The notes beneath the pieces are model-generated. The model worked only from the letters and a program-made list of their open reading frames with translations, made no database searches and had not been told where the DNA came from. Both the position numbers and the translations under genes were made by a program. Of a DNA stretch of 64,000 nt, positions 3,057 to 59,932 are shown piece by piece (position 1 is the first letter of the stretch; each line of letters starts with the position of its first letter). This stretch comes from Chloroflexota bacterium (GTDB taxonomy: Bacteria; Chloroflexota; Dehalococcoidia; DSGV01), in assembly GCA_021787985.1 (NCBI GenBank), contig JAJYLG010000001.1, forward strand, positions 50,163 to 114,162, given 5' to 3'.

Positions 3057-3110
3057 GCCACCACCTTCTTGCGCACCTGTCACCCACTCCGTGCCTATTT
3101 CGGCTTCAGG

Positions 3111-5737: not shown

Positions 5738-6003
5738 GGTTTCCTCCCTTTTCCGTTCGTCCTTCGACCTCGCTCGATAGTTGCCAGGGTTCGCATTCGG
5801 CGGTTGGTGCGCCGGTCCAGCGCCCGTCCAGGCACGGCGCTCCCGCCCGAGCTGCCTCGGCGGAGGCGCGTGCGCGCGGCACCCCCGCCCGCCTCGCAGG
5901 GGGTTGTCCTGCGGCGAGCTGACGATGGTCGCTTGGTCCCGGCGGACCTCCTTTCCGGCGGCGGCCGCCACGGCAGTTCCTCTTCCCGGTTGCTCCAGGT
6001 CAT

Positions 6004-7486: not shown

Positions 7487-7495
7487 CCGGCCTTC

Positions 7496-9424
7496 CTAGC
7501 TGCTCTTCGCCGGGTCGCCGAGCGGCTCCGCAGTGGTGAGCTGTTGCCGCCTCCCGGTCCGGATGAAAAGGTTGGCCAACTGATCGGGAACACCGACAAT
7601 CCCGCGTGGTGCAAAGCGGATGACAACGAGCAATGCTCCGCCGTAGATCACGTACTGCCAGTTCCCGACCCCCGCGACGAGCTGCGGGATCATCACCAGG
7701 AAGAGCGCCCCGACGATCGCGCCGGGCAGCGACTCCATCCCTCCTACCACCACGGCCGCGAGGTAGAAGATCGAGTTCCAGAACGTAAAGGTCTGAGGCG
7801 AGATGAAGTTGACGGTGTGCGTGTACAGACTGCCCGCCACACCGGCGAGCATGGCGCTGACGACGAACGCCAGCAGCTTGTAGACCGTGATGTTCACGCC
7901 CATCGCCTTTGCGGCCGGCTCGCTCGAGCGGAGAGCGAGCCAAGCACGACCGATGCGCGAGCGGCGCAGATTGGCGACGGCCGCGATGCATACCGCCAGT
8001 ACCACCAGGGCAAGCCAGTACTTGGCCCGGCCGCCGGTGAGCATCAGGCCGAACAGGCTCGGCTCAGGCCCTGCCATCCCGTTGAATCCGCCGGTCAGGC
8101 GGTTGAGGTTCGCGATGGCGGTGGGCAGGCCCCACCCGAACCCCCACGTGGCTACCGCCAGGTATGGCCCGCTCAGCCGCAGGCAGGGAACCCCGAGCGC
8201 CAGCCCGAACAGGCCCGCGACGACCGCCGCGGCCACCAGTCCGCCGAGGAACGGGAAGCCAAGATCCGTCGTGACGATGGCGGAGCAGTACGCGCCGAGC
8301 CCCATGAACCCCGCCTGCGCCAGGGAGACCTGCCCCGTGAAGCCGAACAGCACGGTGAGTCCCAGGATGGCGATCGCGGCGATCCAAACCTGCGTCAGTT
8401 GGTCCGTTCTGATGGAACCGACGAGAAACGGCAGCACCACGCCAATGATGACGAGGAGTGACGTCGCAGATGTCTTCCGCCTCCCGCTCCCGAGGAACCG
8501 CTGCAGCGGCGAGCCGCCCTGCGGTCGCGCGAATAGCCCGTGGGTGGCGGAGATCAGCGACCTTCTTCCGAACAGCCCCTGCGGCCACAGCACCAGCGTC
8601 AGCAAGATAATGAGAACGAGTATCGGGCTCGTCCACTGCGTCGAGACATAGAGGTCGAGGACGTTCGTGACCACGCTCAGCAGCACGGTGCCGGCAACCG
8701 CCCCGAGAAAGCTGGTCAAGCCGCCGAGGACCACTCCCGCGAACGCTATCAGCAGCAACTGGTCCATGATGCCGATGTCGAGGTAGTAGATCGGCGTGAT
8801 GATCGCGGCTGCCAGGGCGCCGAGCGCCCCACTCAACACCCAGGACAGGCTGAACACGCTCTCGACGTTGATCCCCAACAGCCCGGCCACGCGCGCGCTC
8901 TGGCTCGTCGCTCGCATGGCGAGGCCGATGCGCGTGCGCTGCATCAACAGCGTCAAGAGCAGGATGACGACGGCCACGACTCCCAAGGCAAGAAGCGAGC
9001 TGTAGCCCAGCGAGATCGAACCGACCCGCACCCCACCCGTGCCCACCGGCGAGGGCACCGCGAACTCGTACGGTCCCCAGACGAACAGGGCCACACCACT
9101 CAAGATCATCGAGATGGCCAGAGTGGCGATGACCGACGACATGAGCGGTTGACCGCGGAGTGGACGCAAGATCAGTCGGTCCATGACCAGCCCGAGCGCG
9201 CCGCCGAGCAGCACCGCGAGCAGGACCGCGAGCGCATAGGGCAGGTGCACGTGTGTCAGCAGGACGTACAGGAGGAAGCCACAGAGCATCGAGGCATCGC
9301 CCTGGGCGAAGTTCAATACATTGGTAGAACGAAAGACAACGATCACTCCGAGCGCCAGCAGGCCAAGGGCGCCGCCCATAACGACTCCGCTGACTATGCC
9401 CTGAGCCAGGCTCCCGAAATGCAT
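7496..9424 (-). CDS. Fused LivH-LivM type ABC permease (single 642-aa polypeptide)
   Basis: Starts at ATG 9422-9424 (MHFGSLAQGIVSGVV...). The LivH-like half is followed without a stop by a LivM-like half (...LTQVWIAAIAILGLTVLFGFTGQVSLAQAGFMGLGAY...). The ORF-track N-terminal 100 aa are low-complexity. Confidence 0.75.
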   Translation of the reverse strand: MHFGSLAQGIVSGVVMGGALGLLALGVIVVFRSTNVLNFAQGDASMLCGFLLYVLLTHVHLPYALAVLLAVLLGGALGLVMDRLILRPLRGQPLMSSVIATLAISMILSGVALFVWGPYEFAVPSPVGTGGVRVGSISLGYSSLLALGVVAVVILLLTLLMQRTRIGLAMRATSQSARVAGLLGINVESVFSLSWVLSGALGALAAAIITPIYYLDIGIMDQLLLIAFAGVVLGGLTSFLGAVAGTVLLSVVTNVLDLYVSTQWTSPILVLIILLTLVLWPQGLFGRRSLISATHGLFARPQGGSPLQRFLGSGRRKTSATSLLVIIGVVLPFLVGSIRTDQLTQVWIAAIAILGLTVLFGFTGQVSLAQAGFMGLGAYCSAIVTTDLGFPFLGGLVAAAVVAGLFGLALGVPCLRLSGPYLAVATWGFGWGLPTAIANLNRLTGGFNGMAGPEPSLFGLMLTGGRAKYWLALVVLAVCIAAVANLRRSRIGRAWLALRSSEPAAKAMGVNITVYKLLAFVVSAMLAGVAGSLYTHTVNFISPQTFTFWNSIFYLAAVVVGGMESLPGAIVGALFLVMIPQLVAGVGNWQYVIYGGALLVVIRFAPRGIVGVPDQLANLFIRTGRRQQLTTAEPLGDPAKSS

Positions 9425-9470
9425 TGTCCCCCCACCCGTCCCTCGGATCCGCGTAAGGATGGCGTTTCCG

Positions 9471-10643
9471 CTAGGCGGGCACGTTCCCCGACAGAAGGTC
9501 TCGGGCGATGACCATGCGATGGACCTCGGAAGGCCCTTCACCGACCAGCCACACCCGCAGCGCGCGAAGCCACCCCTCCAGGGGCATCTCGCGCGTGAGC
9601 CCGACTCCGCCGTGCACCTGGATGGACCGGTCGACAACCCGATAGGAAGCCTCGGTAGCCAGGAGCTTGGCCATGGAAGCGTGGTAGCGGGCCTCCCGGC
9701 CCTCGACGTCGCGCCAGGCCGCATCCCAGGTCAGCCAGCGGCTCGCCCTCAGCTCGACCGCGGAGTCGGCGAGCATCCACTGCACCGCCTGGCGTGTCGC
9801 GAGCGGCGCGCCGAATGTCTCGCGCTGCTTCGCGTATTCGGTCGCCATCGCGAGTGCCTTGCTGGCGACGCCGATGGACTGCGCCGCGATGGAGACACGG
9901 CCGTGCACCAGCCATTTCTGTGCCAGCGCGAATCCCTGTCCCGGCGCGCCCAGCATCTGCTCCGCGGGTACGCGGCAGTCGTCGAAGGTGATCTCCGTGG
10001 TCCAGCGATCACGGATCACGTGGACGGGACGCACCTCCATCCCCGGCGTGCCGGAGTCGATGATGAACGCGCTGATCCCCTCACGTCCCTTGCCGACGTC
10101 GGTCCGCGCGTAGACGATTCCGTGCTGAGCGCGGTCCGCCCCGGTGGAGAAGAGCTTGCGTCCATTCAGGACCCAGTCGTCCCCATCGCGGACCGCCCGT
10201 GTCTGGATGGCCCGCGCCGGGTCAGAGCCGCCCGACGGCTCGGTAATCGCCACGAACCAGCGACGCGCCTCCGCAACGGAGGGGATGACGTATCGCCGGA
10301 CCTGCTCCTGAGCGCCGGCCAGGAGAACGTTCGGCGGGGTGCGGCCGAATGCCCCACCGGCCGCCTCGAAGAGCCCGGTGCGGTGTTGCACCGCCTCCTC
10401 GAGCACGACCGAGTGCTCGAATGTGTTCAGGCCGCCGCCGCCGTACTCCTGCGGCACCTCGAAGCACCACAGCCCGGCAGCCCTCGCCTTGCCCTGAAGC
10501 TCTCGCACCTGCTCCTCGCGCAGCGTCACCTCATCCCAGCGCAGACTTCGTTCAGCAGCGACGACTTCGCGCTGCACGAACGCCCGTACCGTGTCGCGCA
10601 GGAGGGTCAGCTCGTCGGGCAGCTCGAAACCCTGAAACGGCAT
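9471..10643 (-). CDS. Acyl-CoA dehydrogenase
   Basis: Begins MPFQGFELPDELTLLRDTVRAFVQREVV... and contains ...GGVGLTREMPLEGWLRALRVWLVGEGPSEVHRMVIARDLL, which is ACAD family. The ATG is preceded by an AAGGGAG RBS. Confidence 0.85.
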   Translation of the reverse strand: MPFQGFELPDELTLLRDTVRAFVQREVVAAERSLRWDEVTLREEQVRELQGKARAAGLWCFEVPQEYGGGGLNTFEHSVVLEEAVQHRTGLFEAAGGAFGRTPPNVLLAGAQEQVRRYVIPSVAEARRWFVAITEPSGGSDPARAIQTRAVRDGDDWVLNGRKLFSTGADRAQHGIVYARTDVGKGREGISAFIIDSGTPGMEVRPVHVIRDRWTTEITFDDCRVPAEQMLGAPGQGFALAQKWLVHGRVSIAAQSIGVASKALAMATEYAKQRETFGAPLATRQAVQWMLADSAVELRASRWLTWDAAWRDVEGREARYHASMAKLLATEASYRVVDRSIQVHGGVGLTREMPLEGWLRALRVWLVGEGPSEVHRMVIARDLLSGNVPA

Positions 10644-10788
10644 GATCACTCCCTTGCCAGTGTTGGGATGCCCGCTCGCGCCTGGTCAGGCGAGATGCCG
10701 GGCCGGATGCGGCCGCACCTGGCGGAGAGACGCGACAGCCGGGCAACATCCGCGCGCAGCCTGGCTGCAGCCGTTGCCGGCGCCTGAG

Positions 10789-11520
10789 TCATCCGTCCGC
10801 TCGCGCGTCTGGCGTCCGCACGCGGCGGCGCCGGGATATCGCACCGTCTGGGGCGCGGGTGACGCCGCCAGGCGGTTCCGCCGTCGCCTGCTCCAGACGC
10901 CGGATGGTCCGCTCCCGGTGGCCTCGCTGCAGCGCGAGCACCTCTTCCACCGCGCCGCGGCGGCACGCGTCCACCATCGCGCGGTGATCGGCTTCGGTCG
11001 CTTCGAGGTGTGCTCCCGTCGCGAAGAGCGCTCGATACGGGGCCGAAGCGCCCCACAAGATCCGGAGCACCTGGTATGCCCAGGCGATACCGGCCGCGTC
11101 CAGCATGACGAAGTGGAACTCATGGTTGACCCGGTTGAACCGGCCCGGATCGTGCGCCTGCAGTGCGTCATCCATCTCGGCGACGAGCTGGTCCAAACGG
11201 TCAATGTGCTCAGCACTAAGCTTGGGGATCGCCGCCCTGAGGACGAGCTCCTCGACAACCGCGCGGACCTGGTAGATCTGGCGGAGGTCGTCGATGGTGA
11301 ACTTCGCCACCCGTACCCCGCGTCGAGGTAGCAGGATAACCAGCCCATCGGACTGGAGCTGGCCAAACGCCTCGCGCACCGAGCTCTGGCTGACATTGAG
11401 GCGCGTCGCCACCTCGACCTGCCGGATGTGCTCGCCGGCGGTCATTCGGCCTTCGAGGATCTCGTTGCGAAGCACCTGGGCGACCCAGGTGCTGACGGAA
11501 CTGGCGCCCATCGCGACCAT
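10789..11520 (-). CDS. GntR-family transcriptional regulator (FadR/FCD subfamily)
   Basis: An N-terminal winged HTH (...IRQVEVATRLNVSQSSVREAFGQLQSDGLVILLPRRGVRV) is followed by an FCD-like helical domain. It has no SD. A -10-like GATAAT sits 6 nt upstream of the ATG, which suggests a leaderless mRNA. Confidence 0.8.
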   Translation of the reverse strand: MVAMGASSVSTWVAQVLRNEILEGRMTAGEHIRQVEVATRLNVSQSSVREAFGQLQSDGLVILLPRRGVRVAKFTIDDLRQIYQVRAVVEELVLRAAIPKLSAEHIDRLDQLVAEMDDALQAHDPGRFNRVNHEFHFVMLDAAGIAWAYQVLRILWGASAPYRALFATGAHLEATEADHRAMVDACRRGAVEEVLALQRGHRERTIRRLEQATAEPPGGVTRAPDGAISRRRRVRTPDARADG

Positions 11521-11526
11521 GGCGGG

Positions 11527-11555
11527 ATTATCGACTATCGGTCATACTGGGTCAA
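11527..11555 (-). promoter_or_regulatory. Sigma-70-like promoter (TTGACC-N17-GATAAT) carrying the conserved 14-mer CGATAGTCGATAAT, directly upstream of the GntR start
   Basis: In gene orientation the -35 TTGACC is at 11550-11555 and the -10 GATAAT at 11527-11532. The predicted TSS falls at the A of the GntR ATG. The same 14-mer and ~50 nt of flanking similarity recur at 15661-15700. Confidence 0.55.
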
Positions 11556-11685
11556 GACGGCCGCCGCTCCCCCCGCCGGGCCCGCGCCGCCCCACTCGTC
11601 CGCGGGCTCGCTGCGCCTGGGATGCCGCTCGCCGGTTGCGTCGGGGCCCGCCAACCGCCCCGTCACCGAAGGGAGTGCTCGTTCG

Positions 11686-12831
11686 ATGGATTTCCGCTTC
11701 ACCCCCGAGCAAGAGCGGTTCCGGGCCGACGTCCGCGACTTCATCGCGCACCACTGGCCCGCGGGTCGGACTCCGGGGGACGCCGAGGCGCTGGACGCGC
11801 GACGGGTGCGCACGTTCCGGCGGGCGCTGGCAGAGCGCGGCTGGCTGACGCTCGCCTGGCCCACTGAGCACGGCGGGCTGGGGCTGGGTCCGCTCTGGCA
11901 GGCCATCTATATCGAGGAGATGGCCTCGGCGGGCGCGCCGTACCGCGATCAGGGTGTCGATCGCATTGGGCCCACCCTCATGCTCCATGGCACCGAGGAC
12001 CAGCGACGCCGTCATCTGCCGCCCATCGCCCGCGCCGAGTCCTGGTGGTGCCAGGGGTTCTCCGAGCCGGGCGCCGGCAGTGACCTGGCCTCCCTGCAGA
12101 CCCGCTCGGTCCTCGACGGCGACGAGTTCATCGTCAGTGGCCAGAAGATCTGGACCAGCTACGCTCATCAGGCCGACTGGATGGTCCTGCTGGTTCGCAC
12201 CGACCCGGACGCGCCCAAGCACCGCGGCATCTCCTTCCTGCTCGTCGACGTGAAGACCCCGGGCATCACGGTGCGCCCGCTTGTCAGCCTGCCCGGCCAT
12301 CACTCGTTCAACGAGGTCTTCTTCGAGGATGTGCGCGTGCCACGGGAGAACCTCGTCGGCGAGCTGAACCGCGGCTGGTACGTCGCCACTACCACGCTGG
12401 ACTTCGAGCGCAGCGGCATCGACCGCGTGGTCGTGGCGCGCCGACTGCTCGAGACGCTCCTGGCCCACGCCCGCGAGCGCGGCGTGCCGCGGACGATGGC
12501 GATGGAGCTGAGCGAGCTCCGCACCGGCTTCGAGGTAGCCCGCATGATCGCGTATCGCGTGGCCTGGTTGCAGCAGCAGGGCCTCGTGCCGAACCGCGAG
12601 GCGTCGCAGAGCAAGCTCCTCGGAACCGAGGTCCACCAGCGTCTCGCCAACCTGGCGCTGCGCATGCTGGGGCCGGTGGGGCTGCTACGTGCCGGCGATC
12701 CCCTCGCGCCGTTGGCGGGCCTGGCGGCCGAGGAGTACCTGGGCTCCGTGGCGGTCACCGTCCAGGCGGGGACCAGCGAGATCCAGCGCAACATCATCGC
12801 GACGCGAGGTCTCGGCCTACCACGTTCCTAA
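11686..12831 (+). CDS. Acyl-CoA dehydrogenase (divergent from the GntR gene)
   Basis: Begins MDFRFTPEQERFRADVRDFIAHHW and ends ...GTSEIQRNIIATRGLGLPRS. A GAAGGGAG RBS lies ~10 nt upstream of the ATG at 11686. It is a paralog of 1893..3056. Confidence 0.85.
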   Translation: MDFRFTPEQERFRADVRDFIAHHWPAGRTPGDAEALDARRVRTFRRALAERGWLTLAWPTEHGGLGLGPLWQAIYIEEMASAGAPYRDQGVDRIGPTLMLHGTEDQRRRHLPPIARAESWWCQGFSEPGAGSDLASLQTRSVLDGDEFIVSGQKIWTSYAHQADWMVLLVRTDPDAPKHRGISFLLVDVKTPGITVRPLVSLPGHHSFNEVFFEDVRVPRENLVGELNRGWYVATTTLDFERSGIDRVVVARRLLETLLAHARERGVPRTMAMELSELRTGFEVARMIAYRVAWLQQQGLVPNREASQSKLLGTEVHQRLANLALRMLGPVGLLRAGDPLAPLAGLAAEEYLGSVAVTVQAGTSEIQRNIIATRGLGLPRS

Positions 12832-12860
12832 GCCTCGCGCTCGTGGGGCTGACGTCAGGT

Positions 12861-14096
12861 CTATTCAAAGATCCCCGCGGCCTCGTAGGCTGCCATCTCG
12901 TCGTCCGAAAGGCCGAGGATCTCGCGGCAGACCCAGTCCCGCGCTTCCCCCAGCAACGGCGCCGCTCGGCGCGGCTGCGCGACCAGGTCGGAGAAACGGA
13001 ACGGGCTGCCGTGGCATCGATACCTGCCCATCTCCGGGTGGTCCAGCACCGCAAACGTGCCGCGGAAGCGGAACTGTGGGTCCGCGAAGAGATCTTCCCC
13101 TTTCGCCACTGCGGCCGCGGGCACGCCCACCGCCTGCAGCCGACGCACGAGGTCGTTCGCCTCGAACCCGGCGGTCCAGGCGGCGAGCGTCGCCTCGAGC
13201 GCGTCCTCGTGCCGTTTCCGCTCCAGGAAGGTCGCGAAGCCCTCGTTCTGGCACAGATCTTCCCGCCCCATCTCGGTGCAGAGCGCCGACCACTGCGCGT
13301 CCGTCCGCACCGCGATGGCGACCCAGCGGTCTTCACCCCGGCAGGGGAAGACCCCGTGGGGAGCGGCGTACGGGTCTCGGTTGCCTCGGCGCACCGCGGC
13401 GGCGCCGCGAGTGGCGGGAAGCTGCTCACCCAGCAGGCCCGGAAGCGCGAACTGGCAGGCGACCTCGTACTGCGAGAGATCAACGTACTGTCCCCGACCC
13501 GTCCGCCGCCGGTACTCCAGCGCGACGAGCACAGCCACGGAGACGTAGTGCAGCGCGATGAAATCCGCGTACGCGGAGTACGGCCCGGTGGGTGGCCGGT
13601 CCGGCCAGCCGGTGACCTCGTACCAGCCGGTGAGGGCGGATGCCTGCTGGCCGTAGCCGCGGTGCGTGGCGTGAGGGCCGGTTTGCCCCTGCAGGCATTC
13701 GCTGACCATGATCAGGTCCGGACGAACCCTCCGCAGATCTTCGTACGCAAGCCCCCAGCGTGCCATCACTCCGGGCACGAACGTCTCGACGACCGCGTCC
13801 GCCCAGGGAAGCAGGCGCTTGAAGAACTCGCGCGCGGCTGGCTTCTGCATGTTGAGCGCCAGGGAACGCTTGTCCGAGTTGTAGACGGCGAAGTAGCCGC
13901 TGCGGTTCAGTCCTCGTACGTCGCCCGCATACGGTGAACCGAGTCGCGTGGTATCCGGGTGCACGCTCGATTCGACGCGCAGCACCGTCGCGCCCCACAT
14001 GGCCAGCAGCTTCGTGGCGGCCGGCCCGGCCACGGTCGTGCCGAAGTCCAGGATGTGGACGCCTTCCAGGGGCAGTGTGGGTCGTTCGCCGGCCAT
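12861..14096 (-). CDS. Family III CoA-transferase, paralog 3
   Basis: Contains ...VHILDFGTTVAGPAATKLLAMWGATVLRVES... and ...RRTGRGQYVDLSQYE..., the CaiB/BaiF fold signature. Confidence 0.8.
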   Translation of the reverse strand: MAGERPTLPLEGVHILDFGTTVAGPAATKLLAMWGATVLRVESSVHPDTTRLGSPYAGDVRGLNRSGYFAVYNSDKRSLALNMQKPAAREFFKRLLPWADAVVETFVPGVMARWGLAYEDLRRVRPDLIMVSECLQGQTGPHATHRGYGQQASALTGWYEVTGWPDRPPTGPYSAYADFIALHYVSVAVLVALEYRRRTGRGQYVDLSQYEVACQFALPGLLGEQLPATRGAAAVRRGNRDPYAAPHGVFPCRGEDRWVAIAVRTDAQWSALCTEMGREDLCQNEGFATFLERKRHEDALEATLAAWTAGFEANDLVRRLQAVGVPAAAVAKGEDLFADPQFRFRGTFAVLDHPEMGRYRCHGSPFRFSDLVAQPRRAAPLLGEARDWVCREILGLSDDEMAAYEAAGIFE

Positions 14097-14097
14097 C

Positions 14098-15357
14098 TCA
14101 GACCACCCCCAGGGCGAACAGCAGCTCGAGCTCTTGCGAGCTCAAGCCGAGCTCATCCACGAGCACGGCACGGTTGTGCTGCCCGAGTCGGGGTGCCGGA
14201 CCTCGGACGACCCAGGGTGCGCCCGTGGTATGAACCGGCACCCCGGGATACCGCAGCACGATCGCTCGTGCCGTGTCCGCGACCTCTCGCCAGGAAGCGC
14301 GCGCCGCAAGCTGGGGGTCGGCGAGCACGTCCGCCAGCGTGTTGACCGGGCTGAACATGTGTCCGTCGCGGACGGCTGCTTCCAGGAGCTCCGCCTTCGT
14401 CTTGGTGCGCAGGAAAGCGGTGAAGGGCTCGAGGAACCGGTCGACCTCATCGGGGGGTAGGCCCGCGGGATCGAAGGTGGCCCAGTCGGTCTGCTTGAGC
14501 CATTCCGGTGCCGCGCCTTCGGAATCCATCCACTCCATGAGCTTGCGGGCGGTCCGTGCGCCGCCGTAGAAGGTCATGAACATCCAGACCACCCAGCCAT
14601 CCTTGCATTGATAGAGGGTGCGCGAGCGGCGTCCGGGGCCGAGGTCGCGCCACATTCCTTGTCGCTGGAGATTGACGCCGCTGAGATCGGCGAACGCGTA
14701 GGTGTGCGTCAGCATGGACAGCGGCACCTCCTGCGCCGCCACGTCGACGTGTTCGCCGTGGCCGGTTGCGAGGCGGCGAAAGTGGGCCGCGAGGGCGCCG
14801 ACCACGCCGGCCATCGCCAGGTGCAGGCTTGCCTGCGGCGGGAGCCCCACCCGCAGCGGCGCCCGGTCGGGATCCCCGACCATGTGCATGTACCCGCCGA
14901 GCGCCCAGGTGAGCAGGTCGTCCCCCGCGTACGAGCGATACGGCCCTTCCTGCCCGTACGGCGTGAGCGACACCAGGACGACGCGTTCGTTCTGCGCCCT
15001 CAAGTCTTCGTAGGCGAGTCCGCGCGCCGCCAGATAGCCGGGCGGAAACCCTTCGACGACGAAATCCGCCCCCGAGACGAGCTTCCGGAACAGCGCCTGG
15101 CCGTCGCGAGTGTCGAGGTTTAGCGTGACGCTCTGCTTGCCGGCGCCGTATCCCAACCAGAACAGCCCGCGCTCGAGGCCCGGCTCGCCGTCGGCGAACG
15201 GGCCGAGGCGGCGAGCCGGGCTGCCCCCCGGCGGCTCAACCGCGATGACCCGCGCCCCCAGGTCGGCGAAAGTGCGGCCGAAGAGCGCCGTCTCCGTCGT
15301 CGCCAGCTCCAGCACGACATAGGGCGCGAGCAGGTCCTCGTGTGTCTCGTTGGCCAT
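14098..15357 (-). CDS. Family III CoA-transferase, paralog 4
   Basis: Starts at the ATG at 15355-15357 (MANETHEDLLAPYVVLELATTETALFGRTFADLGARVIAVEPP...) with a GGAGGA RBS 13 nt upstream. The in-frame upstream extension to 15660/15708 is low-complexity. Confidence 0.75.
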   Translation of the reverse strand: MANETHEDLLAPYVVLELATTETALFGRTFADLGARVIAVEPPGGSPARRLGPFADGEPGLERGLFWLGYGAGKQSVTLNLDTRDGQALFRKLVSGADFVVEGFPPGYLAARGLAYEDLRAQNERVVLVSLTPYGQEGPYRSYAGDDLLTWALGGYMHMVGDPDRAPLRVGLPPQASLHLAMAGVVGALAAHFRRLATGHGEHVDVAAQEVPLSMLTHTYAFADLSGVNLQRQGMWRDLGPGRRSRTLYQCKDGWVVWMFMTFYGGARTARKLMEWMDSEGAAPEWLKQTDWATFDPAGLPPDEVDRFLEPFTAFLRTKTKAELLEAAVRDGHMFSPVNTLADVLADPQLAARASWREVADTARAIVLRYPGVPVHTTGAPWVVRGPAPRLGQHNRAVLVDELGLSSQELELLFALGVV

Positions 15358-15660
15358 TTCGCTGCTCGTTTCCTCCAAGCCTGCCTCCTCGGCGAACGAT
15401 GAGGTCGGATTGTCCACGGGGGCTCCCTGCTCGCCTCGGTGGCCCGTAACTTCCCTCGCCGCCGGCAGCAGGGGCCGACGCGCGGCGGCGCAGGAGGGAG
15501 CGTGGACGGGCCTTGCCGATGCTTCGCCGGCGCGGCGAGCCGCGGTCGCAGGCGAGGCCGGCAGTTCCTCCGCAAGCAGCCCATGCTGCCGAACGAGGGT
15601 GGGCCAGCGGCGGAAGGAGCGCGGCTGGCGCGGGCAACAGAGAGCGGCCCACCGGGCCAT

Positions 15661-15689
15661 ATTATCGACTATCGACCAAAATGGATCAA
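15661..15689 (-). promoter_or_regulatory. Second copy of the promoter/operator element (TTGATC-N17-GATAAT with CGATAGTCGATAAT)
   Basis: This is the same architecture as the 11527-11555 element. It lies ~300 nt upstream of the CoA-transferase 3/4 gene pair. Confidence 0.5.
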
Positions 15690-15770
15690 CGCCGCCCCCG
15701 CTCCCCACGCTTCACTGCGCCCGCCACCTCGCACTCGGCGGCTTCCGATGATTCGGGCAGGCATCCGCGC

Positions 15771-17336
15771 TCACGTGAGGCCGGCCGGCCCCACACGCAC
15801 TCGCACGCGCGCATATCCTGTGGCGCCGTTCGGCAACGGCTCGCTCTCGGTGGCCGTCTGCGCCCTTCCGCCACCGTCTGCGGCCCGCGCGACGATCTCG
15901 AGGACCTGCGGGGCCTGACTCGCCCTTACGTCCCACTCGTAGGACCACAGCACCCACGCGGCGGGACCAAGAGGCGGAACCAGCCTCGCCTCGCGCCAGG
16001 TCTGGCCACCGTCGGTGGAAAGCTCCACCCGGCTGATGCCTCGGTCGCCCGCGAAAGCTACGCCCTGTACACGCACGGTGCCCTCGCCCAGCTCCACGCC
16101 GTCGGCGGGGACGTCGATGCGGCAGAAGGTGTGCACGTGGGCCTCCTGGCTCCAGCCGCGCTGCTCCCAGTAGCCGAAGTACTCCTTTTCAGTGAACAGG
16201 ATCTGGGTGATCCACTTGGGGTTCTTCATGCCGTAGCGGCCGGGCACGAGCAGGCGCAGAGGAAAGCCATGTTCCACCGGCAGGGTCTCGCCGTTCATGC
16301 GATACGCCAGCATGACATCGTCGCGGAGCGCTACCTCCAACGGCAGGCTGTCAGAGTAGCCGTCCTGGGAACGAAAGACGACCGACCGCGCGGGCGGCAA
16401 CGGCTGAAGCTCGCCGAGCAACGGAGCCAGCGGCAGGCCCGTCCATGCGGCGTTACTGATGAGGCCGCCCTGCAGTCGGTTGCTGATGCATTCAAGGGTC
16501 AGAAACACGGTCTTTGATGGTCGTGCCAGGATGTCATCGTAGGTGAGAACAAGCGTCCGCCCGGAGCTGCCATCCACCCGCAGGCGCCAGGTATCCGGGT
16601 CGACCCGAGGCGGGGAGAAGTCCTTTGATACAACATAGAACTGCGCGGTCGGCGTGACCGCGGGCGTCGGCCTCCCGGCCCGTGTGGCGCGGGTTGCTCG
16701 CACGAAAAGATCCAGCACCTGCTTGCCGGTGAAACCCAGCGCCAGCACGCCCAGCACCCAGGCAACGGAGGTGGTCACGAACTGACGGCGGGTAGCGCCG
16801 GCTTGGGCCGCGGGGCCATCCCTCAGGACTCGCGCGGGGCCGGCCGGCACGCCACGAACCGCCGTCGTCACGGCGGCGAACGTCAAAGACGCGAGCAGGG
16901 ACACCAGAGCGTATCCCTGCCATTGCTTCTCAGCGGTGATCCGGCCCGGGTAGAGCGCGCCGGGAAGCAGCCCCAGCACGATGAGGAGAAACGACGGCAA
17001 GGCCGCGCGGAGCAGGAAGGCCTGCAGGGCTTCGCCGAGTCGCCCGCCGGACCGCCGAATCCAGCGGCGGAGCACATCGCCGTCCATGAGCATCGAGATG
17101 ACGGCGTAGAGCGCTATCTGTGCGACGACAACGCCGGCGAAGACCAGCGGCTTGGCGTAGCCTTCCAGACGCGTCAGGAGGAAAGCGAAGGCGCCGAACC
17201 CCAGCGAGAAGGGGGCGGAATCGACCGCCACGTCTGCCAGCACGGGTGTGCCATACGCCCGGCGGAAGACAAGCGAGACGGCAACCGCCGCGAAAGCGCC
17301 GGGCAGCGACCGGCAGAGGGACCCGCGGGCGCTCAA
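15771..17336 (-). CDS. Molybdopterin-dependent oxidoreductase of the sulfite oxidase/MsrP (YedY) family, with an N-terminal membrane domain
   Basis: A hydrophobic N-terminal ~200 aa is followed by ...LTLECISNRLQGGLISNAAWTGLPL... and ...HGFPLRLLVPGRYGMKNPKWITQI..., the Moco-binding and dimerisation motifs. The start codon (TTG in the ORF track) is uncertain. Confidence 0.65.
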   Translation of the reverse strand: MSARGSLCRSLPGAFAAVAVSLVFRRAYGTPVLADVAVDSAPFSLGFGAFAFLLTRLEGYAKPLVFAGVVVAQIALYAVISMLMDGDVLRRWIRRSGGRLGEALQAFLLRAALPSFLLIVLGLLPGALYPGRITAEKQWQGYALVSLLASLTFAAVTTAVRGVPAGPARVLRDGPAAQAGATRRQFVTTSVAWVLGVLALGFTGKQVLDLFVRATRATRAGRPTPAVTPTAQFYVVSKDFSPPRVDPDTWRLRVDGSSGRTLVLTYDDILARPSKTVFLTLECISNRLQGGLISNAAWTGLPLAPLLGELQPLPPARSVVFRSQDGYSDSLPLEVALRDDVMLAYRMNGETLPVEHGFPLRLLVPGRYGMKNPKWITQILFTEKEYFGYWEQRGWSQEAHVHTFCRIDVPADGVELGEGTVRVQGVAFAGDRGISRVELSTDGGQTWREARLVPPLGPAAWVLWSYEWDVRASQAPQVLEIVARAADGGGRAQTATESEPLPNGATGYARVRVRVGPAGLT

Positions 17337-17733
17337 CTGGCGACCGCGGCCCTACGTTCGCCTGCGGTGATTGCGGGACATCGGAACGCCCTCCCCCCGG
17401 TCGTCGTCGCGTCGACGGTGCTCACCCGTGCTCCGAGATGATTATGACAATGGCCACGGCGCGTAGTCAATCGCGGTGGCCGTCCGATCAATGTGACATG
17501 CCGGCCAGGCCTGCCAAGCAACGGTTCGTGCGCACCGCGTTGCACCACGGCGCGATCGCGCCAAGTGAGGCCCGACACATGCCGTCCCTGGAATTCGCGC
17601 CCGGTGTTGGCGATGACATACGTTGCGCCAGAGTGCTATGCTTTCTCCGACGCCGCTCGATGGCCGCAAGATTGAGATCGTACCGATCGGCGGATTCTCA
17701 CCGGATCACGCGCGTTGGAGCGAGGACACATTA

Positions 17734-18660
17734 ATGGTTCGAGACATCGTCATTGTCGGAGCAGGGGTCGCCGGTCTGAGCGCCGGGTTGATCGCAGCGC
17801 AGAGCGGGTTTGACACGGTGGTGGTTGATCCGCTGGGCGGCGGCGGCCAATTGGTCAACATCGACCGAGTGCTGAACTACCCGGGGCTCGATGAGATCCA
17901 CGGCTTCGATCTGGGTCCCCGGATCGCCACCCAGGCGATGGACCAGGGAGTGTCGTTTGTCCTCGGAACCGTCGACGGTCTGCGAGCGGAGGCCGACGAG
18001 CTCGACGTCGTCCTGGACTCGGGCGACGTGATCACGGGGAAGTCCGTCATCCTGGCGATGGGTTCCAGCATCCGCCGAGCCGGGATTGAAAACGAAGAGG
18101 CGTTCGAGGGACGGGGCATCTCGTACTGTGGCGTGTGCGATGGTCCGTTCTTTGCCGGGCGCGAGATCGCCGTCGTCGGCGGTGGGGACTCGGCCGCCGA
18201 CGAAGCGCTGTACCTGGCGACCCTCGCCAAGCGCGTGCACCTTGTCTTCCCGGCCGGCGAGATGCACGCCATGGCTGCGGCCCAGAAGCGGCTCCGCGAG
18301 CTGAATAATGTTGTGTTGATGCCAAACTACAGAGTGGCCCAAGCGGCCGGCGACGGCAGCGGCTTGAAGCGACTCCAGTTGGTGGACGTCCGCGACAGCT
18401 CCACCGCCGACCTCGAGGTGGAAGGAGCATTCTTGTACACCGGGCTGGCTTCCAGCACGGCGTTTCTGAAGGGGTTGATGGAGCTCGATGAGGGCGGGCA
18501 CGTGGTCACCGATGCCTGTCTGCGGACGAACGTGCCCGGAATCTTCGCCGCGGGCGACATCCGCCAGTTCTCGGTGAAGCTGCTCGCGGCCGCGGCCGGG
18601 GACGGCGCCAGCGCGGCGGTCTGGGCCGGCCGCTACCTGCGCGGGCAGCGCAGTTCGTAG
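17734..18660 (+). CDS. FAD/NAD(P)-dependent pyridine nucleotide-disulfide oxidoreductase, thioredoxin-reductase-like
   Basis: Begins MVRDIVIVGAGVAGLSAG and has a redox-active CGVC plus a second GGGDSA dinucleotide motif. A GAGGA RBS lies 8 nt upstream of the ATG at 17734. Confidence 0.8.
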   Translation: MVRDIVIVGAGVAGLSAGLIAAQSGFDTVVVDPLGGGGQLVNIDRVLNYPGLDEIHGFDLGPRIATQAMDQGVSFVLGTVDGLRAEADELDVVLDSGDVITGKSVILAMGSSIRRAGIENEEAFEGRGISYCGVCDGPFFAGREIAVVGGGDSAADEALYLATLAKRVHLVFPAGEMHAMAAAQKRLRELNNVVLMPNYRVAQAAGDGSGLKRLQLVDVRDSSTADLEVEGAFLYTGLASSTAFLKGLMELDEGGHVVTDACLRTNVPGIFAAGDIRQFSVKLLAAAAGDGASAAVWAGRYLRGQRSS

Positions 18661-18715: not shown

Positions 18716-19342
18716 CTACGTTGCCAGCAGCCAGTCGACGACGCGCCGGTACTGCGCAAGCGGCACCTCGCCGACAACGCGAACGGCGCCGGCCGCGTCG
18801 GCGAGCAGCACCGTCGGCACCGCGGTGATGCCGCGTGTCTGAGCCTCGATGAAGTCGGCGAGCACCGCTGCCCGCTGTGTGCCCTCGTCGAGGTCGCGCT
18901 GGAAGCCCGCCACGTCCAGCCCCGCGCTGTCGGCCACCTGGATGAGCACGTCTCGCTGTGAGATGTCCCGGTTGAGCTCGAAGTAGGCGCGCAGCAGCGC
19001 CTCGTGGTAGCGAGCGAATGCTTCTGCACCCTGCCGCTCGGCGCACTTTCCGGCCTCCAGGGCCGGCAGGCTGTGTGAGGGCATGTCGCGGTCGTCGGGC
19101 CACGGGTGGAAGGTGACGCCATCCGGCGCGCCCATCTCTGCGGCCATTCGCCAGGACTCGCGCGTGTGGTCGTCGGGGCGACGGCCCTCGGCCTCAGGCT
19201 CAGGTCGCAGCGGGTAGGCTTTCCACGTGACGTTCACGCTTCCCGCGTACGTGTGCGTGATCTTGCGCAGACGAACCGCCGCGTTGTAGCACCACGGTCA
19301 GAGGTAATCCGAGTACGCGGTGACGATGACTGGCCCAGCCAT
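18716..19342 (-). CDS. DsbA/FrnE-like thiol-disulfide oxidoreductase with in-frame TGA (predicted selenocysteine, UPWC motif)
   Basis: Translation from ATG 19340-19342 reads MAGPVIVTAYSDYL-TGA(19298-19300)-PWCYNAAVRLRKI.... The TGA sits where DsbA/FrnE proteins have the first Cys of CPWC. The downstream ORF 18716..19237 is in the same frame and continues a DsbA fold (...GITAVPTVLL...). A GAGG RBS is present. A hairpin lies 14 nt after the TGA. Confidence 0.7.
19266..19283 (-). other. SECIS-like stem-loop downstream of the DsbA-like TGA
   Basis: The mRNA forms CGCGG-CGGUUCGU-CUGCG (5 bp stem including a G-U pair, loop with GGUU), starting 14 nt after the UGA. Confidence 0.35.
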
Positions 19343-23599: not shown

Positions 23600-24688
23600 C
23601 TACTCGCGCAAGTCCGCGACGCGCGCGACCGGCGTTCCGTCCCGTCGGCACAGCGCCCGCGTCACCGGACGCGTCTGGTCCCCGAACGTGGGTTGCCAGC
23701 TACTGTGCTTGCCGGCGCCTCCTACCACGATGACGGAGATCGCCTCCGGCGCATCTGCGATGGGCACCATCGTGTCATCTCGGTCTGGGAGCCCATTGCG
23801 GTGCGCCAGGAAGGCCCGGTACTCGGGGCCGAGGCGTCCCAACGGGAACCGTGCCTGCTCGAACAGGAACTGCTTCACCGTGCGCTTCGAGAACCCGTCC
23901 CGGGCAAGCGTGGCGGCGTGCTCTGGCCCCAGGCTCAGCAGCGGCCAGCCACGGCCGAGGAGATTGTTGCTTCCGGCCTCGCCCATGGCGCCCGCGATCA
24001 GGTGGAGGATGCCGATCCCGGTGGTGCTGTAATGGTCCTGAATGTTGTGCGGGCCCTCGCAGCCGAAGACGGTCACCGTGCTGGTGTCTGGCGCGAACCC
24101 GCGCTCGACGTGCAGCGGCTCCCAGGGATTTTGCTCTTCGTTTTCGGCCACGCAGTAGGCGATCTTTGCCGGGTTCCCTTGAGTGGCGCGATCGCCGCGA
24201 CCGGGCAGCCCTCCGCCGATGTTCATCAGGATGAGGCGCATGGCTCTGCCGATCGTTGCGTTCGCGCGAAAGCCCTGGCCGAACGCGTTGTAACCGGCAT
24301 TGATGCTGAGCTCGCGCGCGACTGGCCCGTTGACGACGACCAATGGCGCGACCGGGTGGGTTGTCGCCTGGATCGAGTCGATGTTGAACGCCGGGTCGGC
24401 GATCGCCTCCACTGCCGCGATCACGACCGGTAGGAATTCCGGCCGGCAGCCCGCCATGGCCGCGTTGATCGCGATCCTTTCCACCGTGGCCTCGCCCTGC
24501 CTCGGAGGCAGCACCGCGACGACCTCCTGGCGATCCCGGTCTGTCCAGCCGAGGAGCTCCTCGACGAGGTCCTCGGTGGGCGGCACGATCGGCAGGCCGT
24601 CGGTCCAGCCGCGTTCTTGGTAGAGCTCGTTGATCGCTCGATACGAGTCCTCGACGCGCAGCGTCCGGGCCGCCGCTCCGTCAGCCAC
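23600..24688 (-). CDS. Uncharacterised conserved protein, UGSC-associated partner A (paralog of 31116..32156)
   Basis: It shares N-terminal ...GWTDGLPIVPPTE... and a central ...GQGFRANATIGRAMRLILMNIGGGLPG... block with the paralog. The GTG start (second GTG, 24686-24688) lies 6 nt after a GGGAGGGA RBS and overlaps the UGSC-A stop by 8 nt. Confidence 0.65.
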   Translation of the reverse strand: MADGAAARTLRVEDSYRAINELYQERGWTDGLPIVPPTEDLVEELLGWTDRDRQEVVAVLPPRQGEATVERIAINAAMAGCRPEFLPVVIAAVEAIADPAFNIDSIQATTHPVAPLVVVNGPVARELSINAGYNAFGQGFRANATIGRAMRLILMNIGGGLPGRGDRATQGNPAKIAYCVAENEEQNPWEPLHVERGFAPDTSTVTVFGCEGPHNIQDHYSTTGIGILHLIAGAMGEAGSNNLLGRGWPLLSLGPEHAATLARDGFSKRTVKQFLFEQARFPLGRLGPEYRAFLAHRNGLPDRDDTMVPIADAPEAISVIVVGGAGKHSSWQPTFGDQTRPVTRALCRRDGTPVARVADLRE

Positions 24689-25256
24689 GCTCACTCCCTC
24701 CCTGAACGCCCGGAGCTGGCAGCGGCACGGCGGCGCTCACCGCTGTTGCCACCGCATCGGCGAGGTCCTTCGCCTTCGCCACCACCTCCTCCTCGGGGAT
24801 GCCCCCCAGCGGGTGCTGCGTGAGCGCGATCGGAAGCTCGGGCAGGCCGCGGTTCCGCGCCTCGAGCCGTGCGAGGGCCTGGAACTCGTCCGTACCGACC
24901 ACTACGGTAGGAACTCCCTGCTTCTCGAGCAGGATGGCGCCGTGGATACTCCACGACGTGCACGACCCTCAGTCCGCGCTGCCCACGATGACGAAGTCGC
25001 ACGTCATCAGGTCAGCCAGCACGTCCGGGGGAGGCGGTCCGGCGATGGGCTTCTCCCGCTTCAACACTTCGCGTATGCCGTGAAGCTCCTGCAGCCGCTT
25101 GGCGACCGACAGCATGAGGATGTCCGCGTTCGGCTTGCCGTTGTCCAGGATCCCGACGCGCGCGCCGGCGAGGCTGTCCAGTCGCGGCGCCAGCCTGACG
25201 GAGGCCACCTTGGGTTCGGCCGTCGGGTCATAAACTCTCGTCCAACGCTCGGTCAT
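24681..25256 (-). CDS. UGSC-motif small selenoprotein A (in-frame TGA at 24969-24971)
   Basis: Starts at ATG 25254-25256 with an AAGGGAG RBS. The ORFs 24969..25295 and 24681..24902 are in one frame and joined by a TGA: ...DFVIVGSAD-U-GSCTSWSIHGAILLEKQGVPTVVVGTDEF.... The paralog 32176..32718 has a TGA at the same aligned position. Confidence 0.7.
24939..24957 (-). other. SECIS-like stem-loop downstream of the UGSC-A TGA
   Basis: The mRNA forms GUCGUGG-AGUAU-CCACGGC (7 bp stem, 5-nt loop with GU), starting 11 nt after the UGA. Confidence 0.45.
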
Positions 25257-31115: not shown

Positions 31116-32156
31116 TCACGGCGCCACCGCCAGGTCACGCACGACGGCCGAGGTCATTTGTGTGTCTCCAAAGTTCGAGCAGACCGTGACGTGATACGGC
31201 TCGTCCCCGCCCGCCACGACCAGCACGATGTCTTCCGGCTGGGCGGCGACGGCATGCTCTTCCGAGATGGCGCGGCGCTCGGGGCGGCCGCCCAGGGCCT
31301 GGATCTCGTCCGGGAAGCGCGACCGCGGCACCTTCGCGTGCTCGTACAGCCATTCCTTGGTGCGCTGCTTGTCGTAGCCCTGGCTCTGGAGCAGATTGGC
31401 GTGGCCGTAGCTCATGATCACCAGCGGATTCCCGTGCTGGAACTCGACGTTGTTGGCGCCCACCTGCCCGAGCGTGTCCGCCACCGCCAGCAGCACGCTC
31501 TCCGCCTTCTTGTAGATGGCGAGGACGTTGGCCGTCCCGATCGCCCCGACGCAGGTAACGACACTCTCGTTCGCAGCGAAACCTCGTTCGACGTGCAGCG
31601 GGGGCCACGGGCTGCGCTCCTCGTCCTCGCCGAAGCAGAACGTGTACTTCCCCGGCATCCCGTGCAGCGCCTGGTCCACGGTGCCGGGAGCGGCGCCACC
31701 GATGTGCAGCATGCAGAGGCGGACCGCCCGCCCGATCGTGGCGTTCGCGCGCCAGCCGGGGCCGAGCAGCCCGCGCTGGCAGTTGATGCCGATCGTGCGT
31801 CGTATCGGCCCGTTGACGATGATGGCGGGTCCAACGGGATTGGTCGTGGTCTGGATGCCGTGGAGGTTGAAATCGGGGATCGCCAGCGCCTCGACCGCGG
31901 CGATAACCGTCGACATGTACTCCGGCAGGCAGCCCGCCATCACCGCGTTGGCCGCGATCGTCTCGATGGTGGCCGCGCCCCCCGCCGGGTCGAGGTAGGC
32001 GATGAGCTCGTCCGGCGGGCGTGCGGTCGCCGCCACCATGGCCGCGACCCGCTCCTCCGTCGGGGGTATCAGGGGCAGTCCGTCTCCCCAGCCCTGGGCC
32101 TGGGCGTAGTCCAACCACCCATCGAGTGAGTCCGGGACCTCTCGAACGGTAGCCAC
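31116..32156 (-). CDS. Uncharacterised conserved protein, UGSC-associated partner B (paralog of 23600..24688)
   Basis: Contains ...GWGDGLPLIPPTEE... and ...GPGWRANATIGRAVRLCMLHIGGAAPG.... It has a GTG start 20 nt after the UGSC-B stop. Confidence 0.65.
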   Translation of the reverse strand: MATVREVPDSLDGWLDYAQAQGWGDGLPLIPPTEERVAAMVAATARPPDELIAYLDPAGGAATIETIAANAVMAGCLPEYMSTVIAAVEALAIPDFNLHGIQTTTNPVGPAIIVNGPIRRTIGINCQRGLLGPGWRANATIGRAVRLCMLHIGGAAPGTVDQALHGMPGKYTFCFGEDEERSPWPPLHVERGFAANESVVTCVGAIGTANVLAIYKKAESVLLAVADTLGQVGANNVEFQHGNPLVIMSYGHANLLQSQGYDKQRTKEWLYEHAKVPRSRFPDEIQALGGRPERRAISEEHAVAAQPEDIVLVVAGGDEPYHVTVCSNFGDTQMTSAVVRDLAVAP

Positions 32157-32175: not shown

Positions 32176-32718
32176 TTACGCTTCCAGCGGGCGCGGCGCC
32201 GCCACTTTGGCGACCACGTCGTCGATCGCGTTCCTGATCACGCCGCGCGAGCTCTCGGTGTCGCCGAACTCGGTTACCTCGGTTGGCGGAAGCACCACCA
32301 TCGGGGAGCTGCTCGCCCCCTTACCCTTGAACGTGACCGTGGCGAGGTTGACGAACCGCTCGGTCACCAGTACCACGGACGGGATGCCCCGTCGAATCAG
32401 CTCGATCGTGTCGTGGACACTCCACGCGGTGCAGGACCCTCAGTTGGCGAGCCCCACGATGGCGATGTCGGCGTTCTCCGTCGCCTGTTGGAGCACGGCC
32501 TCCGACGCGGCGGCGGCGATGGGCACCTCGAACTCGAGGACCTGCGCGACGCCGAACTCATTGACCAGCGTGCCGCGCATCTCGTCGACCAGCTTGTTCA
32601 TGCTCTGCCAGCCGTTGTTGAGAAAGACGACGGACTTGCCCCGCAGGTCTTGCGGGGCGAACTCCGCGGTCACTCGGGTCGCACGAAACGCACCAGCCGT
32701 CGGTTCTACGATCCGCAT
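32176..32718 (-). CDS. UGSC-motif small selenoprotein B (in-frame TGA at ~32440-32442)
   Basis: Starts at ATG 32716-32718 with a GGGAGAAACAC RBS. ORFs 32440..32718 and 32176..32376 are in the same frame: ...DIAIVGLAN-U-GSCTAWSVHDTIELIRRGIPSVVLVTERF.... This is the same architecture as UGSC-A. Confidence 0.7.
32411..32425 (-). other. SECIS-like stem-loop downstream of the UGSC-B TGA
   Basis: The mRNA forms CGUGG-AGUGU-CCACG, 14 nt after the UGA. It is near-identical in shape to the UGSC-A hairpin (loop AGUGU versus AGUAU). Confidence 0.4.
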
Positions 32719-33065: not shown

Positions 33066-33141
<76 letters not shown>

Positions 33142-44885: not shown

Positions 44886-45857
44886 ATGAGAGGACGACTC
44901 CAGGCGGCGCTGGTCGACCGCGACGCGCTTCGGTCTCAGATCCGGGACAAGTACACGGTGGTGGCCCTCGAACCGCAGACGGGCTTCCATTTCCACACGG
45001 GCCGGCCGCTCGCCAGGATGCTCGGCTACGACGAGGCGGACCTGGACCGGCTGCCGTCCGCCGTGGCGGAGTCCTTCGCCGGCACGGGCAACCCGTTCGC
45101 CTTCGGACGGCTGGCGGAAGGCGAGGTGGTCGTCGACATCGGGTGCGGCGCCGGGTTCGACACCTTGTTGGCGGCTGGGCAGGTCGGGCCACGGGGCCGA
45201 GTCATTGCCGTGGACATGACCCCCGCCATGCTCGACAAGGCCGCCGCGGGCGCCCTGGTCCTCAACCTCCGCAACGTCGAGGTACGCCACGGCGTTGCGG
45301 AGGAGCTGCCGGTGCCCAGTCAATCGGCCGACGTTGTCATCAGCAACGGCGTCATGAATCTGTGCCCGGACAAGCTCGCGGCCATGCGCGAGGTCCGCCG
45401 TGTGCTGCGGCCAGGCGGGCGTTTCCAGATCGGCGACCTGGTCGTGCACCAGGAGGTGCCACAGGACGCGAAGGACGACATCGACCTGTGGTCCGGCTGA
45501 ATCGCCGGGGCTCTGCTGGAAGCAGAGTGGGACTGGGTCCTCAAGCACGCCGGGTTCATCGACGTGCGCTGGGGCCGCCAGGTGGATGTCTTCGCGGGCT
45601 CCAAGCACGAGTCCGACGCTCAGGAATTCGGTGCGCGTGGCGTCACGTTCGCTGGTAGGAGACCCATGCGGGCGGCCGACCCCGCGCCCGTGTGGGCGGA
45701 GCGCGACTCTGATGGCGGCCGCCGGTGCGCGGTCCCGGTCGCGTCGGCTGGCCAGCAGCCAGGCCCTTCGTGTGGTAAGATGCAGTCACGGGGACGAAAG
45801 GGCTCGACAGGGGCCGGCGTGCTCGGGTTGCAGGCCGAGGTGCCATCAACCTCGTAA
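44886..45857 (+). CDS. ArsM-like SAM-dependent methyltransferase with in-frame TGA (45498-45500) at the conserved catalytic Cys position. Predicted selenoprotein; 3' end uncertain.
   Basis: Contains a GCGAG SAM motif (VVDIGCGAGFDTLL) and ...VVISNGVMNLCPDK.... Around the TGA it reads DIDLWSG-TGA-IAGALLEAEWDWVLKHAGFIDVRW..., and typical ArsM sequence continues in frame after it. The nominal stop at 45855-45857 overlaps the tmRNA 5' end by ~68 nt. Confidence 0.55.
45511..45527 (+). other. SECIS-like stem-loop 10 nt downstream of the ArsM-like TGA
   Basis: CUCUGC-UGGAA-GCAGAG: a 6-bp stem with a 5-nt loop. Confidence 0.4.
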
Positions 45858-46143
45858 ATCAGGTGGCAAACAAGTAACTGGCGAACCACAACTCGCCCTC
45901 GCTGCCTAAGAGCTAGGCAGCCGTCCGCCACCGCCTCGTCCCGGTGGGTGGTGAACGGGCGACGCAATGCCGGGATGCCGCGCAGCGCTCGCTGACGACG
46001 CGCGCGAAAGATCAGTCAGCCCGCCCCGAAGGGACGCCGGCGGTAGCGGCCCGAGGGGCTCAAACAAAGTGCCGCAGAAGCCTGTGGATGCCCGGGGCGT
46101 ACGCTCACTGGACCGGGGGTTCAATTCCCCCGCGTCTCCACCA
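45790..46143 (+). ncRNA. ssrA: tmRNA (ssrA), tag peptide GEPQLALAA
   Basis: The 5' GGGGACG pairs with the 3' CGUCUCC-A-CCA. The T-arm is GGGGG-UUCAAUU-CCCCC. The tag ORF GGC GAA CCA CAA CTC GCC CTC GCT GCC TAA runs 45880-45909. It is followed by the hairpin CTGCCTAAGAGCTAGGCAG. Confidence 0.85.
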
Positions 46144-59829: not shown

Positions 59830-59932
59830 GCCAAACCTCCGTTTGTGCATCCCATCACACTATAGGCGCCGGCTTCCGACACGCTCAACGAGGGCGGGAC
59901 GCCGATGCCGCCAGGCGTGGAGGGACATCCGG

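Follow-up and report, generated by a model that had tools for sequence, protein, structure and literature searches.

In aquatic metagenomes, few predicted selenoproteins are as abundant as the UGSC proteins. The family, described in PMC1976440, PMC2398784, and PMC13188914, was reported in 2007 as the "UGSC-containing protein," a predicted selenoprotein of unknown function (PMC1976440), and 33 of its genes have been counted in 26 sequenced bacteria (PMC5029168). Forms with selenocysteine (Sec) outnumber forms with cysteine, 255 to 21 in the published count (PMC2398784). The literature regards the family as probably thioredoxin-fold, and reviews of 2022 and 2026 still list it as uncharacterized. 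Nearly all such prokaryotic selenoproteins, UGSC included, have been identified by bioinformatics only, and their functions are largely uncharacterized (PMC13188914).

A bacterial RNA element that serves for comparison is the SECIS of Escherichia coli fdhF. Its minimal form is a 17-nt upper stem-loop that occupies nt 15 to 31 and has a conserved G23 and U24 in the loop; G23 is a SelB contact, and a bulged U17 is needed by E. coli SelB (PMC8659212).

Here, we analyze a 64-kb stretch of DNA, referred to below as the window, that encodes two UGSC proteins, copy A and copy B, and we focus on copy B. Like the known family (Zhang and Gladyshev 2007-2008; ABI76733.1, Hyphomonas neptunium), the genes have the Pfam domain and the U-G-S-C column, occur in more than one copy per genome, and belong to a set in which the Sec form is far commoner than the Cys form. 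Unlike the known family, copy B is diverged, such that it scores 86.7 bits where the NCBIfam model NF041046 ["UGSC family (seleno)protein"] sets an equivalog cutoff of 125 bits, and the structural model is flavodoxin-like where the literature has a thioredoxin fold. What is new here is the linkage of UGSC to a partner family of ~350 amino acids, together with the predicted flavodoxin-like fold and a third TGA gene in the window, which is DsbA-like.

RESULTS

Gene structure and family membership of copy B

Copy B is a frame of 180 codons in which the TGA at codon 93 is the sole internal stop (Table 1), and a Shine-Dalgarno-like GGGAG motif lies 6 nt 5' of its ATG. A mechanical list of open reading frames reports the gene as two ORFs, 32440..32718 (92 amino acids) and 32176..32376 (66 amino acids). 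The two share one frame, as the initial annotation had claimed when it ran the frame downstream of the TGA into the second ORF. With U read as C, the product scores 115 bits with the Pfam model PF24696 ("UGSC family"), whose cutoff is 25, and residues 3 to 145 correspond to positions 2 to 145 of the 172-position profile in a match that spans the TGA. We read the locus as one gene rather than two because the PF24696 match crosses the stop at codon 93 and because Cys homologs align on both sides of it. Moreover, third-position G+C (GC3) is high on either side of the TGA.

TABLE 1 Positions of the two UGSC genes, their hairpins and partner genes, and a DsbA-like gene in the window
Feature	Position	Strand	Description
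UGSC-family gene, copy B (predicted selenoprotein)	32176..32718	minus	180 codons including Sec93; ATG 32718; TAA 32178..32176
In-frame TGA, copy B	32440..32442	minus	U93 of the U-G-S-C motif; context ADIAIVGLAN-*-GSCTAWSVHD
SECIS-like hairpin, copy B	32412..32426	minus	nt 17-31 counted from the U of UGA
Partner gene B	31116..32156	minus	346 aa; GTG start 32156; follows UGSC copy B
UGSC-family gene, copy A (predicted selenoprotein)	24681..25256	minus	191 codons; TGA 24971..24969
SECIS-like hairpin, copy A	24955..24941	minus	same stem as copy B; loop GUA
Partner gene A	23600..24694	minus	364 aa; 14-nt overlap with the end of UGSC copy A
DsbA-like gene (likely selenoprotein)	18716..19342	minus	TGA 19298..19300; motif SDYL-U-PWC-YNA (UxxC)

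The TGA sits in the context VGLAN-U-GSCTAWSVHD, and the sequence given earlier for this site, VGLAN-U-GSCTAW, is what we find there. It fits the family motif, U/C-G-S-C followed by T-[AS]-W-S, and the U/C column is invariant in the family alignment. Copy B belongs to a diverged branch, its closest relatives are sequences from Dehalococcoidia and Rokubacteria at 45 to 47% identity, and one homologous locus (L161) carries an ortholog of the same architecture with an identical TGA and an identical hairpin. By profile score, copy B is a UGSC member under Pfam that falls outside the narrower NCBIfam equivalog NF041046. Copy B thus has what marks a selenoprotein gene, a UGA aligned with Cys and coding sequence conserved on both sides, and on these comparisons we take it to be a genuine Sec-coding member of the already known UGSC family and not new in kind.

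Conservation of the TGA

Copy A is the one UGSC gene besides copy B that a six-frame motif search found in the window. It passes both family models, with 171.8 bits for PF24696 and 136.5 bits for NF041046. The initial annotation described copy B as a UGSC-type selenoprotein paralogous to copy A, and this description stands, as both copies match the PF24696 and NF041046 models across the TGA. Pairwise alignment, which the annotation had proposed at both levels, gives 34% identity overall for the proteins and 51% for the nucleotides. Within 20 residues on either side of U, protein identity rises to 47.5%, near the ~45% first estimated. Copies A and B are best read as old paralogs and not as the outcome of a recent duplication.

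The two TGAs fall in the same aligned column, also as first claimed, and that column, number 93 in copy B, is an invariant Cys in 13 full-length Cys-type homologs that align on both sides of the TGA. One scan of species-representative genomes, which gave 80 genome loci, and one scan of metagenome contigs supplied 160 loci in total. Together with the window, these 160 loci yielded 154 distinct Sec-type (TGA) and 7 distinct Cys-type (TGC) sequences, a proportion that matches the published 255 to 21. Among the genome loci, TGA occupies the column in 78 of 80, and the remaining two, both from actinomycetes, have TGC. The loci with TGA come from Dehalococcoidia and other Chloroflexota, Betaproteobacteria, Rokubacteria/Methylomirabilia, Nitrospinota, Binatia, and Paracoccus versutus. 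The earlier argument that a random nonsense mutation is an unlikely source of the TGA is therefore borne out by its retention in the paralog, in the L161 ortholog, and in 154 distinct Sec-type sequences.

Gene callers do not read such genes through. In five loci found from the partner side (L161 to L165), the UGSC gene is split into one ORF of 92 to 95 amino acids and another of 38 to 69 amino acids. Copy B likewise calls for Sec-aware annotation.

The hairpin downstream of the TGA

The hairpin of copy B pairs C17-G-U-G-G-A22 with U26-C-C-A-C-G31 around a loop of G23-U24-G25 and is embedded in the codons Ala-Trp-Ser-Val-His-Asp. The initial annotation wrote it as CGUGG-AGUGU-CCACG, one loop base away from that of copy A. 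Both points agree with the sequence, the loops being GUG in copy B and GUA in copy A, and RNAfold closes an extra pair, A22-U26, to give 6 bp and a 3-nt loop. On its own, a 6-bp hairpin in DNA of 69% G+C is unremarkable. Against shuffled sequence, the 63 nt after the UGA had a z score of +1.08 in copy B, which is no better than shuffled, and of -2.01 in copy A, and a search of the window with Rfam at gathering thresholds returned only a tmRNA and two tRNAs, with no match to a bacterial SECIS. The significance of the hairpin and the TGA comes from comparison, namely, from a TGA in 154 sequences and from frozen synonymous sites, and not from the fold of a single sequence.

When 152 Sec-type sequences were analyzed with RNAalifold, the 6-bp helix at nt 17 to 31 was recovered and nothing else. 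Synonymous positions within it are nearly fixed. Nucleotide 18, the third position of an Ala or Ser codon, is G in 153 of 154 Sec forms, against a background in which GCG makes up 39 to 44% of Ala codons and TCG makes up 47% of TCN Ser codons. The Ser codon at nt 22 to 24 is AGT in all 154, and AGT accounts for only 2.7% of Ser codons in the window and 6.8% in the partner genes. Nucleotide 27, the third position of a Val or Ile codon, is C in 154 of 154 (background, GTC in 37 to 47% of Val codons and ATC in 72 to 90% of Ile codons). Finally, nucleotide 30, the third position of a His codon, is C in 148 and T in 6, where CAC makes up 70 to 77% of His codons in the background. Five of the six CAT codons leave a G-U pair, and in the sixth (L063) a change of G18 to A compensates and gives an A-U pair. 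Outside the helix, the Sec forms vary freely in their third positions (nt 6, 9, 15, 36, 39, and beyond).

The Cys forms are different. Six of the seven use AGC for this Ser (Fisher P = 3e-10), and position 18 in the Cys set is G, A, or C. The peptide motif A/S-W-S-V/I-H is conserved in Sec and Cys forms alike, so the extra constraint in the Sec forms is on the RNA. We conclude from these synonymous sites that the hairpin is under RNA-level selection in the Sec forms and that this selection is evidently relaxed in the seven Cys forms. The stem is nearly invariant, and classical covariation is minimal, being confined to the one compensatory change in L063; the near invariance across phyla reflects the second role of these bases, which is to encode the conserved peptide. 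We note that a Cys-type TGC gene in an actinomycete metagenome-assembled genome (MAG) (L016, position 6208) has retained AGT together with an intact hairpin, in contrast to the remaining six Cys forms, which is consistent with a recent Sec-to-Cys replacement.

The hairpin resembles the fdhF SECIS in that it lies within coding sequence, has the same spacing from the UGA, ends at nt 31, and presents G23 and U24 in its apical loop. It is the invariant AGU codon of the UGSC Sec forms that supplies both of these nucleotides. The hairpin differs from that of fdhF, however, in having only 6 bp, a 3-nt loop, and no conserved lower stem. Moreover, position 17 is a C paired with G31 in 154 of 154 sequences, and thus there is no bulged U17. 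In sum, the UGSC Sec forms have the elements by which a bacterial SECIS is recognized: a stem-loop downstream of the UGA, G and U in a loop of G23-U24-R25, and signs of selection on the RNA. A SECIS so small and so nearly invariant could be probed with one synonymous mutation.

Partner gene family

Each UGSC copy in the window is accompanied by a partner gene (Table 1), and the two partners are 42% identical. Partner A is 69 to 74% identical to partners in MAGs of Rokubacteria and Methylomirabilia (L053, L056, and L064). The partner family has no Pfam or NCBIfam match. It has more than 7,800 homologs, and none of the 120 that were listed bears a functional name. A model by AF2 reached a pLDDT of 87 and had no relative in the PDB, and a profile search of PDB sequences was empty. 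An alignment of 30 partner sequences shows no variation at Cys76, at Cys174, or at several Arg, Asn, and Glu residues.

In 74 of 80 genome loci, the partner adjoins UGSC and shares its strand. It is usually downstream, and it is upstream in one betaproteobacterial group. The linkage also appears when sampling starts from the partner, as in all five loci so obtained (L161 to L165) a UGSC gene that is split at its TGA and bears the same hairpin lies just upstream. In addition, the UGSC frame runs on for ~430 to 470 codons past the U/C codon in 37 of ~164 cases (~22%), one of which measures 212 codons and reaches the end of a short locus. Such joined frames occur in L016, L020, L021, L026, L028, L032, L033, L069, and others and include both Sec and Cys forms; in-frame continuity together with a partner match was checked by hand for L020 only. 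The joined frames point to natural in-frame fusions of UGSC and partner and are probably the "UGSC/Unknown_1 fusion" noted in 2008.

Separately, two loci from Dehalococcoidia/Chloroflexota MAGs (L054 and L057) contain a Sec-type UGSC gene with several kilobases of flanking sequence and no partner homolog in the locus, and they stand out against a pairing that is otherwise close to universal. In L164, a ParE-toxin gene lies between UGSC and the partner.

We consider it slightly better than an even bet that UGSC and its partner form an obligate two-component selenoenzyme, in which UGSC would be flavodoxin-like and the partner would be the catalytic subunit of a widespread, unrecognized redox reaction in organic-acid or amino acid catabolic clusters. 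If so, annotations have hidden the partnership, since the selenoprotein is cut at the TGA by gene callers. The linkage and the joined frames are starting points for experiment, and P. versutus DSM 582 (L008) is a culturable carrier of the UGSC-partner pair.

Predicted fold and comparison with other selenoproteins

The structural model was made from a Cys homolog 47% identical to the window protein, and not from the window protein itself. On this model, the UGSC fold is predicted to be flavodoxin-like alpha/beta and not thioredoxin-like. No thioredoxin-fold protein was among the fold-search matches listed, and both the matches and the order of secondary-structure elements are flavodoxin/Rossmann-like. 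The model places the pair in U93-G-S-C96 at the N terminus of helix 3, whereas the CxxC of a thioredoxin fold is found at the start of helix 1. A profile search of PDB sequences with the UGSC protein was empty.

UGSC thus shares with the thioredoxin-fold selenoproteins (DsbA-like, Prx-like, and Trx-like) a UxxC redox motif at a helix N terminus but differs from them in element order and in the folds that it matches. A UxxC motif in a selenoprotein is also found in GrdB and PrdB (PF07355), of glycine reductase and D-proline reductase, respectively. GrdB and PrdB work with a separately encoded partner subunit in amino acid or organic-acid metabolism. UGSC, however, has no detectable sequence similarity to them and is joined by another partner family, such that the likeness is one of analogy only. 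A Pfam search at E values of up to 10 linked UGSC neither to PF07355 nor to any other family, and genes of the PrdA/GrdE type were not seen near UGSC genes.

Probable selenocysteine decoding in the window

TGA is a regular stop codon in the window. The stops of the other predicted genes are TGA in 22, TAG in 20, and TAA in 5, and TGA is not reassigned, since 22 other genes end in it. No tRNA-Sec gene (selC) was found in the 64-kb window, and Pfam searches found no SelA, SelB, or SelD among predicted window genes of at least 330 amino acids. We infer nonetheless that the TGA of copy B almost certainly codes for Sec.

A further TGA indirectly supports the use of Sec by this organism. The DsbA-like gene (Table 1) rises from 46 to 86 bits against Pfam DSBA when its TGA is read through, and the match then reaches the start of the profile. 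It is likely the third selenoprotein gene of the window, one for which no clear SECIS hairpin was established. Together with copies A and B, it brings the TGA genes of selenoprotein families in these 64 kb to three, and use of Sec by the organism would seem to extend beyond copy B. A scan of the window for TGA read-through returned the two UGSC genes and two candidates that were dismissed; the DsbA-like gene, whose N-terminal part is too short for that scan, came to light through a truncated Pfam match instead. The dismissed candidates are at 26742 and 45498. We note that the DsbA-like gene adjoins a thioredoxin-reductase-like gene on the plus strand (17623..18660).

Proposed mechanism and alternatives

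How copy B is expressed and what it does can be proposed from the features above. Very probably, 32718..32176 is one gene for a 180-residue UGSC selenoprotein that depends on SelB and the hairpin for Sec insertion and that serves as a redox subunit together with its partner. By the established bacterial pathway, SelB-GTP carrying Sec-tRNA(Sec) would bind the hairpin through G23 and U24 of its loop, and Sec would be delivered at the UGA instead of release factor 2 acting there. The location of U93-G-S-C96 at a helix N terminus is predicted to suit cycling between a selenol/thiol and a selenenylsulfide. Linkage, joined frames, and conservation suggest that UGSC would pair with the partner encoded just downstream and be the redox-active member of the two, and the invariant Cys76 and Cys174 of the partner are candidate redox partners of UGSC.

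Copy B could instead be a relic in a lineage that has lost the Sec machinery, leaving a 92-residue fragment and, possibly, a second product of 66 residues that starts at the GTG at 32376. The failure to find sel genes or tRNA-Sec in the window is compatible with a relic, as is the cutting of homologous loci by gene callers into two short ORFs. A relic, however, should not be found beside other intact TGA genes of selenoprotein families, three in 64 kb in all, with no other disabling mutations. Nor should it keep perfectly, down to the rare AGT codon, a hairpin that Cys forms lose. Moreover, GC3 remains high past the TGA as well as before it, and a split would bisect a single predicted domain. 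We regard the relic as very improbable. An outright accident is the least probable of all and is effectively refuted. A pseudogene or an error of sequencing or assembly could have made a chance nonsense codon, and single-base errors do occur in metagenome assemblies, from one of which the window probably comes. Yet the TGA stands at the same codon in a paralog of 34% identity and in 154 distinct homologs across phyla, and it recurs together with an identical hairpin in the L161 ortholog.

Another alternative is that the UGA is recoded, to an amino acid other than Sec. SelB-dependent non-canonical tRNA(Cys) has been reported for a few bacteria, and such a tRNA could insert Cys, or near-cognate read-through could insert Trp. 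The amino acid inserted is indistinguishable from sequence, and the hairpin would serve SelB either way. A ratio of 154 TGA to 7 TGC is, however, what would be expected if Sec gave a catalytic advantage. In both the literature and NCBIfam, the family is taken to pair Sec with Cys forms, and UGA is otherwise an ordinary stop in this DNA. We thus give recoding to a non-Sec residue a chance slightly smaller still than that of the relic and retain Sec insertion, guided by the hairpin, as the explanation for copy B.

Gene neighborhood

The two diverged UGSC-partner cassettes, B and A, flank a Liv-type ABC transporter, and a DUF6282 protein and an NAD-binding dehydrogenase are also encoded nearby. 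Across homologous loci, we tallied 124 genes that flank the pair in 37 loci, and no third gene that might indicate a substrate was linked to it consistently. Most frequent among the neighbors were TctC, in 15 loci, and luciferase-like monooxygenases, amidohydrolases, and thiamine pyrophosphate (TPP) enzymes, in five to six loci each. In the clade nearest to copy B, a flavin reductase (PF01613) is encoded just upstream of UGSC, and a split TPP enzyme, a luciferase-like monooxygenase, and Amidohydro_2 are other recurring neighbors.

The window also contains a catabolic cluster at 1..17336 that includes a MaoC dehydratase, two acyl-CoA dehydrogenases, three family III CoA-transferases, a second Liv-type ABC transporter (4517..9724), and a sulfite-oxidase-like molybdoenzyme (15771..17336). 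A similar set (CoA-transferases, acyl-CoA dehydrogenase, MaoC, and a luciferase-like protein) is found directly upstream of the ortholog of copy B in L161. Elsewhere, a tRNA-Lys gene (CUU) at 33066..33141 on the minus strand lies ~350 nt upstream of copy B and on the same strand. The tmRNA gene at 45790..46143 on the plus strand encodes the tag peptide GEPQLALAA, and the ORF just upstream of it, which ends at the TGA at 45498, is, from its position, probably smpB with a normal stop. Finally, a NuoF-like gene (650 amino acids) and a NuoE-like gene (178 amino acids) lie at 57411..59850 on the minus strand next to a flavin amine oxidase. No further complex I genes are close by, and the two may encode the diaphorase portion of an NAD-linked oxidoreductase that is soluble.
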